Positions 43,135 to 52,514 of a stretch of DNA of 64,000 nt are shown piece after piece. Origin of the DNA: a virus. Lineage: Duplodnaviria; Caudoviricetes. The position numbers and the translations under genes are program-made. The notes beneath the pieces were generated by a model. The model saw only the letters and a list, made by a program, of their open reading frames with translations, did no database searches and was not told the DNA's origin. Position 1 is the stretch's first letter. Each line of letters opens with the position of its first letter. The stretch is from IMG/VR virus record IMGVR_UViG_3300049988_000245, positions 64,001 through 128,000 of that record. One strand, given 5' to 3'.

Positions 43135-44262
43135 TCAGAGCTTGAAATCCGAGAAAGTACCTGAATCCACGTCCTGCTTGGTCTGACCGATCGTGTATTG
43201 CGTGATCTCGGTCTCCTGCGGTGCCACCTGCACCTCAGCACCGGAAATCCACTTGGCCGTCCACGGGAGAGGATTAGCCTTCTGCGGGTAGATCGGCGAC
43301 AGGCCGACCGCGACCAGACGCTTGTTGGCGATCCATTCGACATAGTCGGACAGGAGCGCATAGTTGAGGCCGATCATGCTCCCGTCCTTGAACAGGTACT
43401 CGGCCCACTCCTTCTCCTGGGTGACCGCGTCGGAGAACAGCTTGGTGCATTCCTCCTTGGTCTCCTCGGCGATCTTGGCGAAGTCCGGATCGTCCTGTGG
43501 TAGAATCTTGATCAGCGTCTGGGTGGCGGCGAGGTGAAGATTCTCGTCGCGGCAGATCAGCTTGATGATCTTCGCGTTGCCTTCCATCCGCTTAACCTCG
43601 GCATACGCCCAGGAGCAGGCAAAGCTCACGTAGAACCGAACACCCTCAAGGATGTTCACGCTCATGATGGCCATCCACAGAGCCTTCTTAAGCTCGTATA
43701 GGTCCACCTTGACGGATTCGCCGTTGATCGTGTGCGTACCCTCGCCGAAGAGGTTGTACAGCCCCTCCAGGCGAATCAGGTTGTCATAGTGCTCGGAGAT
43801 GTCCTTGGCGCAATCGACGATCTCGCCGATGTCCATCATCTCATCGAACACCTGGGATGGATTCGGGTAGACGTTCCTGATGATGTGGGTGTACGACCGG
43901 CTGTGAATCGTCTCCGAGAACGCCCACGTGGTGATGAACGCCTCTAGCTCGGGGAGCGAGACGATCGGCAGGAACGCGATGTTGGGGGACCGACCCTGAA
44001 CGGAGTCCAGTAGAATCTGACGCTTCAGATTCGACGTGAAGATGTGCCGTTCGTGATCAGTGAGTTCCTTGAAGTCTTTTGCGTCCTTCATCACGTCAAC
44101 CTCCTGAGGTTGCCAGAAGAACGATAGTTGCTTCTCGGTTAGTTTGTCGAACTGACGATACTTCATCGTATCGAATCGCTGAACGGAGACGCCTCCATTG
44201 GGGTCCAAGAACGCAAGCGCCTGAGTATGGTCTTTACGAGAATTTGCATCAAATACGGACAT
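43135..44262 (-). CDS. nrdB: Ribonucleotide reductase class Ia beta subunit
   Basis: FFWQPQEVD, QILLDSVQGR, ETIHSRSYTH, LEGVRFYVSFACS, DENLH. Confidence 0.98.
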   Translation of the reverse strand: MSVFDANSRKDHTQALAFLDPNGGVSVQRFDTMKYRQFDKLTEKQLSFFWQPQEVDVMKDAKDFKELTDHERHIFTSNLKRQILLDSVQGRSPNIAFLPIVSLPELEAFITTWAFSETIHSRSYTHIIRNVYPNPSQVFDEMMDIGEIVDCAKDISEHYDNLIRLEGLYNLFGEGTHTINGESVKVDLYELKKALWMAIMSVNILEGVRFYVSFACSWAYAEVKRMEGNAKIIKLICRDENLHLAATQTLIKILPQDDPDFAKIAEETKEECTKLFSDAVTQEKEWAEYLFKDGSMIGLNYALLSDYVEWIANKRLVAVGLSPIYPQKANPLPWTAKWISGAEVQVAPQETEITQYTIGQTKQDVDSGTFSDFKL

Positions 44263-44887
44263 AAGTAACACTCCAATCTTTGCAGTTGCCGCGTTTGGCG
44301 GGATAATCTTGTTTCTTCGTCAAGCGATCTCGAAAGGCTTGATAAACTTTCGGCCACGCTACCTTAAATCTATGCTCGTTTTCTTGGCACCAAGATTTTA
44401 GGCAGTCGGACGCGAAAATCTCGCCCTCCGGTGACCGAATTTCAGAAGCTTTGCTGTTTGGATTGCTGCTTCCAGTCCGAGACACCCCATACATGCCATT
44501 GGCCTCGCCGTAGTGAGGACGGTGATTGGGATGAGTCTTCCCGTACATGCCATTCCGACACCCTGACACATCCCGTCCGTTGTTCCCTCCATATGCGCTG
44601 GGGCTTATGTTGTAGAAATCCGGACTTTTGGCTGCATCATAGGAATCAAGGTAGTGCTGCTCGCGCTCCTGAATTCGAGAATCATCAACGTATTCAAGAA
44701 TGATTCGTTCAAATGAATCTCTACCATATTTTATGTAGGCTCGGCGGAAGTGCTTACCTGATCCGACGTACGAGCTAGAATCTAAGCCAGAATGTCGGCC
44801 AATATACTTCTTACCGTCAAGCTTATTAGTCCAAAGATATATGAATCCCATGAACGGATGATACCAAAGGGTATCACCCGTTCTCAA
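44249..44887 (-). CDS. Free-standing GIY-YIG (Seg-like) homing endonuclease
   Basis: GFIYLWTN..GKKYIGRH; YVGSG; NUMOD3-like NGMYGKTH repeats. Confidence 0.9.
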   Translation of the reverse strand: MRTGDTLWYHPFMGFIYLWTNKLDGKKYIGRHSGLDSSSYVGSGKHFRRAYIKYGRDSFERIILEYVDDSRIQEREQHYLDSYDAAKSPDFYNISPSAYGGNNGRDVSGCRNGMYGKTHPNHRPHYGEANGMYGVSRTGSSNPNSKASEIRSPEGEIFASDCLKSWCQENEHRFKVAWPKVYQAFRDRLTKKQDYPAKRGNCKDWSVTYVRI

Positions 44888-45129: not shown

Positions 45130-45244
45130 CTGAATCTCTCTCGTATAAGGATTCGACGAACAAATTTGGTTCGACGAAAATACCAATTGCATGGTTAACG
45201 GGTGTTTGGCAAGGTGGACGTACGAAAATCAGAAAGGTTCTAAT

Positions 45245-46096
45245 ATGCCGTTTAACCGTCGCGGGATTCTCGCTGGCCTCCTGGGAACGCCCCTGGGGAT
45301 CACCGCACTGAAGGCGATGCCGCTTCCGGCAGAGACCCAGAAGGCCATCGCGTTCACCCCCGAGGTGCAGAAGGCGGTCGAGAACATTCCCCCGCTCCCG
45401 ACCCCGAAACGCAATCTGCATCCGTTATTCGGATTCCAGACGATCGATGCCGAGCTTGGGTTCGCCTATACCCTGCGCAGCCGATACTCAGATGCGGTGA
45501 CCCTTGCGAATCCTGAGCCGCGCATCTCGATCCAGATTAACAAGGTGGTTGCTGGGGGTACATATTACCCGACGATGGACGCGGCCGAGGACGCGATCTT
45601 CAGTAAGTTCGCCATCACCCATCGCGAGGTGAGAAGCCCAGACAACCCCGAGCATACCAAGTTTCACCTCGTGCGGGCGGCGAACCGGATCGCCCAGACG
45701 ACCCGGCGCGGCATGGGTAACGTCATTCTCGTCCATCGGGATGACCTGCATCTACTCGATACCCCGTGGGTGGCCAACGTGATCCCCGAGCGAATCGGGC
45801 GGTGGTCGAACGTCGGGTTCACCCACAACCGAGTCTCCCAGGTCTGGGTCACCGACCGCCGTGTTCCTGCGATCCCGCACGGGAACGCGCTTGTGGGTTA
45901 TCGCGGATCGGAGTTAGACGCCCCTGCCGTTCTCACGTATCATCCGGGCTTTGGATACAGCTACGCGATGAACGAGAAGCCGGAAACCTACATGCACGTA
46001 GTCGGACTGACTGTGAAAGCCCGAGCGCCCCATACGGACGAGGCTATATGGGCGGAAGAGAAGCGGGGTGCCGTACGCCCCGTTCGCGCCGCATGA
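45245..46096 (+). CDS. Truncated major capsid (gp23-like) paralogue with twin-arginine leader
   Basis: FQT....GFAYTLRSRY, ISIQINKVV, AANRIAQTTRRGMGN, LVGYRGSELDA are gp23 motifs; N-terminus MPFNRRGILAGLLG. Confidence 0.8.
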   Translation: MPFNRRGILAGLLGTPLGITALKAMPLPAETQKAIAFTPEVQKAVENIPPLPTPKRNLHPLFGFQTIDAELGFAYTLRSRYSDAVTLANPEPRISIQINKVVAGGTYYPTMDAAEDAIFSKFAITHREVRSPDNPEHTKFHLVRAANRIAQTTRRGMGNVILVHRDDLHLLDTPWVANVIPERIGRWSNVGFTHNRVSQVWVTDRRVPAIPHGNALVGYRGSELDAPAVLTYHPGFGYSYAMNEKPETYMHVVGLTVKARAPHTDEAIWAEEKRGAVRPVRAA

Positions 46097-46287
46097 AGCG
46101 GCCTTCCTTAGAGAAGATCGCCCAGGCCCTTCCTCGCTCGCGTATCATGGCAGGCGAGTACACCTACCCGTACGCCGAGGGTGGGCCTCAGCGGCGGGTC
46201 TTCTACGCAGATGTGGGCACGCTTCCCCCGGAGGCGGCCAACCGATTCATCAAATCGCTCATGGAGAAGTACGATGGAACGTCGTAG
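46093..46287 (+). CDS. 64-aa portal (gp20)-fragment protein
   Basis: PQRRVFYADVGTLPPEAANRFIKSLMEKY matches gp20 PERRVFYIDVGN(L/M)P..KA..Y...M. Confidence 0.75.
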   Translation: MKRPSLEKIAQALPRSRIMAGEYTYPYAEGGPQRRVFYADVGTLPPEAANRFIKSLMEKYDGTS

Positions 46288-46810
46288 CCTTCTCGCGGCC
46301 GGTGCTGCCGCGATCACCGGTCTGTTCGGCGCCAAGTCGGCTCAGGCGGCGCCCTCGGGCGCTCTCACTCTGGACGAAGCCACGCGGATCGTCGTCGGCA
46401 ACGTTCGTAATCCGCCTGCCCCGGAGGAGATTCAGCGTCTCATCGCGGGGATCAATATGCAGGTAATGAACCGGCTTACCCAAGCTGGCATCGTTGACCC
46501 GCAATACGTAATGACGAGCGCCGTGGTTCGCTTCCGGGGGCAGGTGGTCGAGGCCAAGACACGTAGGCTCTCTTCGCGTTACACGTTCGGAGAGAATGTC
46601 CCGCCGATCGTGCAGGCCGAGGTCGAAGCCACGTTGGTCGAGAGCATCGTGCAGGAGATCACCGCAGAGTTGGTCCGGCCCGAGAACAAGGGTATCCAGT
46701 ATTGTCCATACGAGTTGGTCACCAGTTCCGGGGTCATCCTCGATCCGGAAACGCTCAACCCCACGATATTCTTTCTGACCCGTTTTGGGACCTTCGTGAA
46801 AGCCGCATAG
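46274..46810 (+). CDS. Mini gp23-like protein with Tat signal peptide
   Basis: VEAKTRRLSSRYTF, QEITAEL, YCPYELVTSSGVILDPETLNPTIFFLTRFG; leader MERRSLLAAGAAAITGLFGAKSAQA. Confidence 0.82.
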   Translation: MERRSLLAAGAAAITGLFGAKSAQAAPSGALTLDEATRIVVGNVRNPPAPEEIQRLIAGINMQVMNRLTQAGIVDPQYVMTSAVVRFRGQVVEAKTRRLSSRYTFGENVPPIVQAEVEATLVESIVQEITAELVRPENKGIQYCPYELVTSSGVILDPETLNPTIFFLTRFGTFVKAA

Positions 46811-46842: not shown

Positions 46843-47250
46843 TTGGGCGTTCTCTTGAAGAATGCCCAACGCGACAAGCCGCGTTCGCGCATCGAACAGG
46901 TCGTTGAATGTATCAACCGGCGTGTTTTCGAAAATGTTCGGGAGATCATCAACCCACGTCTGGTCATGGTCGAGCGCGTCATGATGCTCGATTGGGCCGT
47001 CGAGGCTCGGACTCGGAATCTTCGGACACACATGGACTGCGCCGATTTTCGCCAGAGCGGCTACGTCCCCGAGATGATCGAGGCGGCCATTGACGGTATC
47101 ACGGGTGAAATTCTGGAGATGCAGGCCGGGACGAGTTTATCGTACTGTCCCTACGCGCTGGTGACCGGGCACGAGCAAATTGTCGATCCGACCACCTCTG
47201 GTGAATACGTCTATTTCCGTACCTGTTACGGATTGTACGAGCTACCTTAG
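46843..47250 (+). CDS. Mini gp23-like protein (third paralogue)
   Basis: VEARTRNL, YCPYALV..IVDPTT..VYFRTCYG; start uncertain (TTG after GAGGA). Confidence 0.7.
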   Translation: MGVLLKNAQRDKPRSRIEQVVECINRRVFENVREIINPRLVMVERVMMLDWAVEARTRNLRTHMDCADFRQSGYVPEMIEAAIDGITGEILEMQAGTSLSYCPYALVTGHEQIVDPTTSGEYVYFRTCYGLYELP

Positions 47251-47510: not shown

Positions 47511-47960
47511 TCAGCCCTCGATCTCGCCAACCTCGTAGTGATTCCCCACCTTACCACCATATTTGATTCGGAAGTGAAATGCATCGTTCGGATTCCCGAA
47601 AAAGAACACGTTGGTTAACGGGAGAACCTTGCCGTACTCGATTGGCATCTGGGATCGGAACAGGCTCACCCGCATGTGCCAGAGCGAAGATACGTTCTCG
47701 ATGATCCACTCGTGCATCTCGCGATCGTACGGATGCGCGTACAGCGTCACCATATGGGGGAACGTTTCTTCCACCCAGGCCCAATACTGCTTGTTATTGG
47801 ACGTGTTGAGTTCGTCCTTGGCGTGAACCCGTTTTGTTTCCGGGTCCATCACCGCCAGCGGATGGATATGGCCCTGGATGATGTAGAGACGGCGCAATAA
47901 CTTACGTCGTAAAATTCTTGTTATTCGAAATAATCTTGCTAGTAGCACGTTTACCCCCAT
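47511..47960 (-). CDS. FxLRW-family protein
   Basis: WIIENV...FFFGNPNDAFHFRIKYG; start uncertain. Confidence 0.65.
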   Translation of the reverse strand: MGVNVLLARLFRITRILRRKLLRRLYIIQGHIHPLAVMDPETKRVHAKDELNTSNNKQYWAWVEETFPHMVTLYAHPYDREMHEWIIENVSSLWHMRVSLFRSQMPIEYGKVLPLTNVFFFGNPNDAFHFRIKYGGKVGNHYEVGEIEG

Positions 47961-48160
47961 GACATTTTGAATTCCAGGGCTGTCGTATCGTTTTTGATCA
48001 AGACATTTCCACAAAGTGTAAGTTCCCAATCAAGAAATTCTATTCCTACGTGCTCTTTCAACCACGAGCGAATATTATATCGATCAATCTCAGATTCTGA
48101 AGTGAACATGTGTGGTAAGTCAACGTTGTGATTTGCAATTTTGTGATATCGAAACCTCAT
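47951..48160 (-). CDS. FxLRW-family small protein
   Basis: WLKEHVG...KNDTTALEFKMSWG. Confidence 0.8.
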   Translation of the reverse strand: MRFRYHKIANHNVDLPHMFTSESEIDRYNIRSWLKEHVGIEFLDWELTLCGNVLIKNDTTALEFKMSWG

Positions 48161-48414
48161 CCCCACCTCACGCGAAACGCCGTGGCATCGACATCTGTCG
48201 AGATGTCGATGGTCGTCATGTCGGCGCGCCAGCGGGGTACGACCGGCTTCACCCCGTAGGCGTAGTCGGGCGGGCCGAACTGCTCGCGGCACCAATGGAT
48301 CGCCTCGATCATGTTGGCGTTCGTGGTGAAATAGGTTGGGGAAACAATCATCTCGAAACCGAACGGGTATTTGGTTCCCTTCAGCCGATAAAGCGGTTTG
48401 AACTTGATCTCCAT
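48157..48414 (-). CDS. FxLRW-family small protein
   Basis: WCREQFG...STDVDATAFRVRWG. Confidence 0.8.
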   Translation of the reverse strand: MEIKFKPLYRLKGTKYPFGFEMIVSPTYFTTNANMIEAIHWCREQFGPPDYAYGVKPVVPRWRADMTTIDISTDVDATAFRVRWG

Positions 48415-48662
48415 CAGCACCACCGCATTTTGAAGGCGAGCGCATCGGGCTCATTTTGGAATACAATATGGAATCCGTTGCACCGGAACGCTTCGCTTTG
48501 GTATCCGATTTGATCCATGCACCAGCGTAAGGCGAGGTCGCGCGTCTCGTAGTAGCTATCTCCGTCGAAGACATGCTGTTTTAGAGAGAACTGATACGGG
48601 TAGGTTAGTTTCCGCCCTTTCCGGTCCTCGAATACAGTCGGCTCTTGAAACCAGTCCACCAT
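48414..48662 (-). CDS. FxLRW-family small protein
   Basis: YPYQF..WCMDQIG...FQNEPDALAFKMRWC. Confidence 0.8.
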   Translation of the reverse strand: MVDWFQEPTVFEDRKGRKLTYPYQFSLKQHVFDGDSYYETRDLALRWCMDQIGYQSEAFRCNGFHIVFQNEPDALAFKMRWC

Positions 48663-48928
48663 CAGCAGTACCTCAACTTGAATTCGAGCGCCTGTGGGAG
48701 GTCTCGCATATAAATGGTTCCACGGTGTCCGACGCGCCAATCCTTTCCGTGCGGGCCGACGTTCTCGACCAGCCATTCGGCGATGAAATCGGGTGTGTAA
48801 TCGGCACCGGCCCCAATATCAGGATTGGTGGTTTCAACGCAGCCCGTTCCGAACACCAGCCGATGATGGCGTGGTTGGAACATGTGCTCGTTCGCGTTCA
48901 CCACGTGATGGTATGAGATTCTGGTCAT
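48662..48928 (-). CDS. FxLRW-family small protein
   Basis: WLVENVG...MRDLPQALEFKLRYC. Confidence 0.8.
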   Translation of the reverse strand: MTRISYHHVVNANEHMFQPRHHRLVFGTGCVETTNPDIGAGADYTPDFIAEWLVENVGPHGKDWRVGHRGTIYMRDLPQALEFKLRYC

Positions 48929-52046: not shown

Positions 52047-52514
52047 CTAAGGCTTCAGTGGTTCTGCAATTTCTTTGTCGATGATGATGGGGAATTCTGG
52101 TACGGGCAGAGATTCCACATCGAATCCTTCACCCGCGTCGTACGAGAACGAGATATGCGGGTTGTATTCTGGAAAGTCGTACGAGGCGCCACGGCTCATC
52201 GCGAGGTCGAATCGCGTCCGCAGGTACGAGGATTCCAGATGGAGCACCAGAACGGGCTTCTTCGTGTTGTGGTCTTCCCAGACCTCCCAACCGGTTGCTT
52301 TGGCTTCATGACCGATGTCGTGCTCGGCTCGCCAGAAGAGCGGCTTCTTGCTGTACACGATGGTGGTGTGATAGCGAGATGGGACGATTGGATTTTTGAT
52401 CTTGAAGTCATCGACAAACTTTGAGAGGTCTTTGACCGTCTGTTTGTCAAACTTCACGCATACGTACAGGCCGTTTTTCGGCTCTGAGTCTTCCATAATT
52501 TCAGCAAAACGCAT
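52047..52514 (-). CDS. acb1: Anti-CBASS 2H phosphodiesterase (T4 Acb1/gp57B-like)
   Basis: GLYV..KF, NP...YHTTIVYS, LVL.L.S.YL..R, GA.YDFPEYNPHISFSY. Confidence 0.88.
   Translation of the reverse strand: MRFAEIMEDSEPKNGLYVCVKFDKQTVKDLSKFVDDFKIKNPIVPSRYHTTIVYSKKPLFWRAEHDIGHEAKATGWEVWEDHNTKKPVLVLHLESSYLRTRFDLAMSRGASYDFPEYNPHISFSYDAGEGFDVESLPVPEFPIIIDKEIAEPLKP

Follow-up and report, generated by a model that had tools for sequence, protein, structure and literature searches.

The portal protein of bacteriophage T4, gp20, carries a clip domain (residues 279-358) that is exposed outside the capsid and to which the terminase gp17, and later the neck, attach (PMC4493910). Residues 280-305 comprise the end of stem helix α5 together with the first part of the clip, a domain that also supplies a strand of an inter-subunit sheet (PMC4493910). 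Four residues at the clip tip, N291, M292, R295, and K296, are needed for packaging, and mutation of N291/M292 or R295/K296 abolishes it (PMC4493910). In work cited in PMC4493910, a synthetic 24-residue gp20 peptide spanning residues 288-311 is described as binding gp17 and inhibiting packaging. T4 also provides an example of a virion-protein piece that is kept as a small ORF, namely alt.-1/alt.-2, which according to the annotation of NC_000866 arose when part of gene alt was duplicated long ago and acquired a new stop and a new start. Complete T4-type portals comprise 524-590 residues (524 in T4 and 575 in Sinorhizobium phage Phosso).

Capsid and portal proteins are among the main targets of bacterial immune sensors, including Avs4, Avs8, Avs10, Avs11, Lit, and CapRel. 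The twin-arginine (Tat) pathway exports folded proteins and complexes, and leaderless subunits can be exported with a partner, as in the hitchhiking of Escherichia coli HybC with HybO and of DmsB with DmsA (hydrogenase and DMSO reductase, respectively). Here we describe P0001, a predicted protein of 64 residues. Its alignments show it to be copied in frame, with divergence, from the stem-to-clip segment of a T4-type portal, and it is encoded among genes for capsid-derived proteins, most of them with Tat-type leaders.

The window analyzed, a stretch of 64,000 nt, corresponds to bases 64001-128000 of a 265,895-bp IMG/VR contig with a CheckV completeness of 57%. Many genes of the contig match those of Phosso (469 kb) at 30-60% protein identity, and the contig stops just short of the point where Phosso carries its portal and capsid genes, indicating that it represents about half of a ~460-kb Atu_ph07/Phosso-like jumbo phage. 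The portal gene of the phage itself is past the end of this contig, and the sole contig that extends it adds only 1.3 kb. The cassette consists of four tightly coupled plus-strand genes, of which P0001 is the second, in the gap between nrdB and nrdA of a minus-strand region with the order nrdB, GIY-YIG endonuclease, KTSC ... nrdA, Acb1 (Table 1). P0001 is thus encoded between nrdB and nrdA, outside the head module, which by synteny with Phosso is located beyond the contig end. The other three cassette genes encode rebuilt parts of the major capsid protein, two of them behind Tat leaders. DNA near-identical to the cassette is present in leaf and silage metagenomes from several studies; a DNA search of the cassette against cultured phages gave no match.

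Table 1. Features of the cassette and its surroundings (positions in the window)
Feature	Position	Strand	Size	Description
GIY-YIG gene	44249-44887	-		SegE-like homing endonuclease
Divergent spacer	45130-45244		115 nt	Between KTSC gene and cassette; holds a direct repeat
Gene 1 (P0002)	45245-46096	+	283 aa from second ATG	Tat-type leader (N-R-R-G-I-L, h-region), then HK97-fold body from major capsid protein
Gene 2 (P0001)	46093-46287	+	64 aa	Leaderless portal-derived mini-gene; evidence: Pfam Portal_T4, PHROG 213, codon usage, L047 counterpart
Portal-homologous core of P0001 (aa 32-60)	46186-46272	+		Clip β-strand and tip helix, equivalent to T4 gp20 280-308
Shine-Dalgarno of gene 3 (GGAG)	46263-46266	+		Inside the last P0001 codons, 7 nt before ATG 46274; read directly
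Gene 3 (P0003)	46274-46810	+	178 aa	Tat-type leader ending A-Q-A; Pfam Gp23, 39.6 bits
Gene 4 (P0004)	46843-47250	+	135 aa	TTG start behind GAGGAAG; leaderless gene 3 paralogue
Small ORFs	47951-48928	-		Common C-terminal motif (see text)
Acb1 gene	52047-52514	-		Anti-CBASS; Pfam, 125 bits

The Acb1 gene lies directly beyond nrdA, 5.8 kb from the P0001 ORF, and the same arrangement is found in L041, a contig of 7.4 kb that shares 95.6% nrdA identity with the window. The GIY-YIG gene, located between nrdB and the KTSC gene, is missing at the same place in L042, a contig with a 95% identical nrdB, indicating that it is a recent insertion. An origin of the cassette as homing-endonuclease debris, given that the GIY-YIG gene is 360 nt upstream, was rejected because L042 has the cassette start without the endonuclease; the purifying selection on genes 1 and 3 also contradicts it. 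A general habit of fragmenting large genes was likewise rejected, as a self-tblastn of all ORFs of at least 200 aa revealed no other gene of the contig to be fragmented in a comparable way. Within the divergent spacer, the direct repeat TTCGACGAA occurs twice, 9 nt apart, and may serve the cassette as a promoter or operator. Scans for promoters and terminators, like a search for the T4 late-promoter motif, gave nothing usable.

The preliminary description of this DNA reported a stand-alone 64-aa ORF containing a conserved portal motif and joined to the upstream gene by an ATGA overlap, and all of these elements are present as described. The ORF starts with the ATG at 46093 and comprises 64 codons, ending in a TAG stop at 46285-46287. 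P0001 matches Pfam Portal_T4 (PF07230) with 23.9 bits (E 2.1e-5; curated cut-off 22.9), a match that covers only profile positions 204-233 of 433, and PHROG 213 (portal) with an E value of 1.8e-5. In a six-frame search the P0001 site is the sole portal-like place in the whole contig (E 1.5e-5 per genome), which makes the match more than chance. BLASTP aligns P0001 residues 32-57 with T4 gp20 280-305, and the BLASTP alignment to the Phosso portal spans 48 residues. The protein is colinear with the end of stem helix α5, the first clip strand, and tip helix α6 (T4 ~260-311), it has the motif P-x-R-R-V-F-Y-x-D-x-G of T4-type portals, and its residues 40-63 are homologous to gp20 288-311. That the segment is the most conserved in gp20, as first proposed, is right, and alignment places P0001 in the stem-to-clip stretch. 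P0001 differs from T4-type portals in lacking the wing, crown, tunnel loop, and second stem helix, so that no ring is possible, and in its location outside the head module. Unlike alt.-1/alt.-2, which adjoin their parent gene and have no export context, it is far from the portal gene and sits among capsid-derived genes. tblastn searches of cultured phages with P0001 and with its counterpart P0062, described below, returned only full-length portal genes, and a PDB sequence search with P0001 and P0003 returned nothing relevant.

A 64-codon open frame in DNA of ~60% GC is not rare alone, with an estimated frequency of ~1 in 8. Codon usage in the P0001 frame is, however, gene-like, at +0.31 bits per codon (0.36 +/- 0.19 for 64-codon chunks of long genes), compared with about -0.4 off-frame, and GC by codon position is 0.58/0.48/0.77. 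The shortness of the frame, the GC-rich DNA, and a Pfam score 1 bit above the cut-off would suit a chance ORF with a spurious motif match. This explanation is nonetheless exceedingly improbable given the genome-wide E value, the independent PHROG match, and the in-frame coding signature, and it is contradicted by the counterpart that occupies the same slot in the contig L047 and scores 53 bits.

The ATG of P0001 overlaps the TGA stop (46094-46096) of gene 1, a 283/301-aa ORF, and this ATGA start falls exactly at the edge of the portal-homologous stretch. No Shine-Dalgarno sequence lies ahead of the ATG, which has the ATGA overlap only, and P0001 would be made by termination-reinitiation from the gene 1 message. 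At its other end, the last 14 nt of P0001 overlap the start of gene 3. A fusion of gene 1 to P0001 by -1 frameshifting was considered, as the frames fit, and rejected, as the last codons of gene 1 contain no slippery heptamer. The protein begins M-K-R-P-S-L-E-K and has charged residues throughout, with none of the elements by which we defined a Tat leader (RR, an uncharged h-region of at least 12 residues, and an A-x-A end).

The capsid-derived neighbors of P0001 provide its closest context. Gene 1 matches Pfam Gp23 with 26 bits, above the cut-off, and its AF2 model (pLDDT 81) matches HK97, T4 gp24, and T4 gp23 in Foldseek, each with a probability of 1.0; tblastn of P0002 against cultured phages gave no match. 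The body of the gene 3 product has no A-domain but retains the E-loop strand, the spine helix, and the C-terminal strands of the capsid protein, and it shows a two-piece tblastn match (49%) to the Phosso capsid protein. Its AF2 model has a pLDDT of 77, and Foldseek gave only local matches of 37-40 residues to T4 gp23. The L041 homologue of P0002 is 63-66% identical, with a dN/dS of ~0.23, and that of P0003, P0008, is 58% identical, with a dN/dS of ~0.27; genes 1 and 3 are thus selected and fast-evolving. P0004 is 26% identical to P0003 (E 2e-11) and has a leaderless counterpart in L047 (6823-7275). Between strains, the listed sites in gene 4 comprise 13 nonsynonymous and 5 synonymous changes, along with an in-frame 3-nt loss, and gene 4 is under relaxed or diversifying selection, unlike gene 1 (4 nonsynonymous, 7 synonymous). 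Twin-arginine leaders with RR and an uncharged h-region are found in P0002, P0003, P0008, P0062, and four other L047 genes. P0001 fits this head-fragment family by its body, a colinear piece of a head protein in a coupled cassette of similar genes, and is without the family's Tat leader.

Comparison with related contigs shows that the portal mini-gene has a counterpart and can also be absent. In L041, the closest syntenic relative, only 22 nt lie between genes 1 and 3, and there is neither a mini-portal nor a gene 4; thus, the mini-gene is dispensable. L047, a 9.1-kb viral-metagenome contig with an 83% identical nrdB, has the same cassette layout beside nrdB on the minus strand. Its genes encode, in order, two capsid-like proteins with Tat leaders (333 and 285 aa), the 82-aa P0062, a Tat-leader P0003-like protein (199 aa), a leaderless P0003-like protein (150 aa), and a Tat-leader capsid-like protein (247 aa). 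P0062 combines a Tat-type leader with a portal piece and occupies the same slot, directly before the P0003-type gene, which it overlaps by ATGA as at the gene 1/P0001 junction. It matches Portal_T4 with 53 bits (E 3e-14) and is 40% identical to T4 gp20 240-306; its match to Pfam TAT_signal is sub-threshold (13.7 bits). P0062 and P0001 share 48% identity across a 29-aa core, which is the best-kept part of the cassette between the window and L047 (48% vs 29-42% for the neighbors, with nrdB at 83%). Between the window and L041 the cassette genes are only 58-66% identical, compared with 95.6% for nrdA. By these identities, the cassette evidently evolves much faster than nrdA and nrdB. The preliminary description had named a decayed duplication as the outcome that would overturn its view; P0001 is neither random nor freshly decayed, as the counterpart occupies the same cassette slot in L047. 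We infer that P0001 probably belongs to a family of export-tagged head-protein fragments, within which it is conserved yet dispensable.

A profile search of 1.84 billion representatives yielded ~50 gene-1-like proteins of 190-330 aa, two of them in L047, and at least 15 of the ~50 have Tat-type leaders, the others beginning right at the first capsid motif. On another jumbo-phage contig (L049:3759-6828), Acb1 and an Acb2/Tad1-hairpin gene are followed downstream by a Tat-leader capsid-like member of the gene 1 family, and an nrdA with an intein is close by. A 63-96-kb contig (L045:10001-11652) carries tandem Tat-leader capsid-like genes, P0017 and P0020, beside an ART-PolyVal gene; this cassette is without a portal piece and lies away from nrd genes. 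When 5.8 billion proteins were searched for short proteins homologous to P0001 or P0062, the queries themselves were the only matches. Scans of IMG/VR, JGI metagenomes, and GTDB genomes with P0001 and with the P0002 and P0003 alignments found no relatives, and degenerate DNA patterns for R-R-V-F-Y-A-D-V-G gave 0 matches in IMG/VR. The same-slot mini-gene is present in L047 and absent from L041, and L042 and L043 are cut or differently built; the mini-portals found are two only, P0001 and P0062.

The two mini-portals share a tip that departs from those of real portals. For comparison, 54 of 58 IMG/VR portal genes from Phosso-like phages yielded the homologous segment. Its clip stretch varies very little among them, with the tip turn ending G-P-R-A, P-S-H-L/M-A, or V-H-K-S, and the T4 tip reads A-R-K-A. 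P0001 and P0062 both have G-T-(L/M)-P-P-E, which is absent from T4, Phosso, and all 54 IMG/VR segments, so that the tip has changed from basic to P-P-E. The equivalents of T4 R295/K296 are E-A in P0001 and E-Q in P0062, and those of N291/M292 are T-L and T-M. The shared tip argues for one capture event followed by divergence, and the replacement of the basic pair by an acidic residue argues against plain docking to the terminase in the T4 manner. P0001 and P0062 have 14 of 32 core positions in common, compared with 9-14 for real portals, a count that alone is not decisive. Patchy gene conversion from the phage's own portal may be a source of the conserved motif in P0001.

These tip residues bear on the idea that P0001 is a cytoplasmic interferer of packaging or assembly. 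A free clip peptide would, on this account, bind the large terminase or cap the inter-subunit clip sheet of the portal, and thereby regulate the phage's own packaging or poison that of a co-infecting T4-type rival. P0001 residues 40-63 present, as a naturally encoded free peptide, the stretch homologous to T4 288-311, the gp17-binding, packaging-inhibiting peptide as cited in PMC4493910, and in T4 a strand of the clip joins the inter-subunit sheet (PMC4493910). Having no export leader, P0001 would also remain cytoplasmic. However, N291/M292 and R295/K296 are replaced in P0001 by T43/L44 and E47/A48, which reverses the charge, and P0062 has the same change. In addition, P0062 and the neighboring genes are Tat-tagged, and the gene is dispensable in L041. 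We consider such an interferer unlikely, and the dominant-negative portal fragment put forward in the preliminary description fits poorly on the same grounds, namely the Tat-tagged counterpart and neighbors, the altered tip, and the absence of the gene from L041.

A second proposed target was the portal-sensing Avs proteins, for which P0001 would act as a cytoplasmic sponge, offering a conserved epitope that soaks up STAND/NLR-like sensors such as Avs4 and Avs11. The portal is a proven trigger of Avs4 and Avs11 (bioRxiv 10.64898/2026.01.04.697583), the cassette is fast-evolving and near the anti-CBASS gene Acb1, and the family member in L049 is beside Acb1 and Acb2/Tad1. However, Avs sensors are reported to recognize whole folds via extended, enveloping interfaces (bioRxiv 10.64898/2026.01.04.697583), and a strand-helix piece of ~30 residues cannot reproduce this recognition. 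The export leaders across the family point away from the cytoplasm, and L041 is without the gene, such that competition for Avs sensors is a very doubtful function. Of the original proposal, the portal mimic stands as a reasonable idea, P0001 being a genuine portal-derived mini-gene, while its roles as a cytoplasmic poison or an Avs decoy are unsupported and the family context points to export.

The reading we prefer, to which we give about an even chance, is that P0001 is a working portal-clip mimic within a cassette of export-tagged head-protein fragments that has a fast-evolving conflict function. Indeed, the Tat leaders on the L047 counterpart and on the capsid-derived neighbors make the family look built for the envelope rather than for cytoplasmic portal rings or Avs sensors. 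As a working mimic, P0001 would present the portal clip alongside its capsid-derived partners, in a conflict role such as phage-host or phage-phage interference, and would not be a cytoplasmic poison that acts on portal rings by itself. The cassette products would mimic head-protein surfaces, with most sent to the envelope by Tat, and the leaderless P0001 would either stay cytoplasmic or leave with a leader-bearing partner by Tat hitchhiking. P0001 resembles the hitchhikers HybC and DmsB, the partners of HybO and DmsA, in being leaderless, small, and translationally coupled to leader-bearing neighbors, but these neighbors are not redox enzymes and their pairing with P0001 is putative. Likewise, P0001 is like the Tat-leader head-fragment genes (P0062, P0002, and P0003) in its cassette and head-protein body, and shares its slot and derived tip with P0062, but is without the twin-arginine leader that defines the others. 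A more specific version, which we hold to be improbable, is that the cassette is a counter-measure that uses the capacity of Tat to move folded complexes. In this case, each gene would present, behind a Tat leader, a head-protein epitope that is conserved and often sensed, and a cytoplasmic binder of such epitopes (capsid Gol-like and P-domain pieces and the portal clip), whether a host sensor or a rival's head protein, would be dragged to the translocon or expelled, and P0001 would be the portal epitope of the set, as a leaderless sponge or a partner rider.

The working-mimic reading has to be weighed against the possibility that the window's copy is an eroding relic. An ancestral leader-bearing portal mini-gene, as in L047, would here have lost its leader and stem and be on its way out. 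Its frame would persist owing to its shortness and high GC content and to its place between two genes under selection, the coupling signals of which it contains. The stem stretch E-D-A-V-V-I-Y-R, which P0062 keeps almost as in T4, is unrecognizable in P0001, and the missing leader together with this lost stretch looks like erosion of the N-terminal half relative to P0062. In addition, the ATG is without a Shine-Dalgarno sequence, the Pfam score is barely above the cut-off compared with 53 bits for P0062, and L041 already has a 22-nt spacer instead of the mini-portal. Strain comparisons point in both directions. In an independent silage-metagenome strain that is ~99% identical, the P0001 ORF is unchanged while gene 1 differs at 11 sites (7 synonymous, 4 nonsynonymous), which is weak evidence against decay, as only ~2.4 changes would be expected in P0001. 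A second strain in that run, with 94.6% identity, stays in frame across the motif but diverges completely upstream of 46198, where it reads G-A-A-Q-A-A-T-P-R-R in frame before V-F-Y-A-D-V-G, resembling the A-x-A end of a leader joined nearer to the motif. The 5' half of the mini-gene thus appears to be in flux, as erosion would have it. Against a relic, the codon usage of the P0001 frame is gene-like, the ATGA start lies exactly where the homologous stretch begins, and the clip core is still 48% identical to that of P0062 and retains the derived tip. Collectively, these data lead us to regard the relic as a real but rather doubtful possibility.

No paper on Tat-tagged capsid or portal fragments was found in the literature, and P0001 belongs to a kind of phage gene that is undescribed there, of which it is a leaderless, possibly decaying member. 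The finding matters because a fast-evolving, conserved phage cassette re-issues the most conserved pieces of head proteins as small separate genes, most of them export-tagged. If these proteins are mimics, they would constitute a new class of phage counter-defense or inter-phage weapon and would put the Tat pathway to an unexpected use. Among the members, the portal mini-gene is the smallest and the most amenable to testing, as its segment includes a known T4 inhibitory peptide, and its occurrence with a leader (P0062) and without one (P0001) provides a ready-made natural comparison. Even as an eroding relic, P0001 would show how such cassettes gain and lose members.

Capsid-derived small genes also occur elsewhere in this phage. 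A third one, encoding 153 aa, lies outside the window (L002:1480-1941; contig 175996-176457); its first 45 residues correspond, at 46.9 bits, to the start of the Gp23 profile in the Gol region, and the C-terminal domain fused to them ends F-K-V-R-W-M. The Phosso counterpart of this gene is at 182175-182855, and in Phosso XYS97328 a capsid C-terminal piece is fused to a similar F-K-L-T-F domain. The small minus-strand ORFs downstream of the cassette (Table 1), as well as L002:1907-2203, have the common C-terminal motif A-x-x-F-K-(L/M)-R-(W/Y)-(G/C). These ORFs form a multi-copy small-protein family without a Pfam match, whose domain is fused to capsid fragments in both this phage and Phosso.
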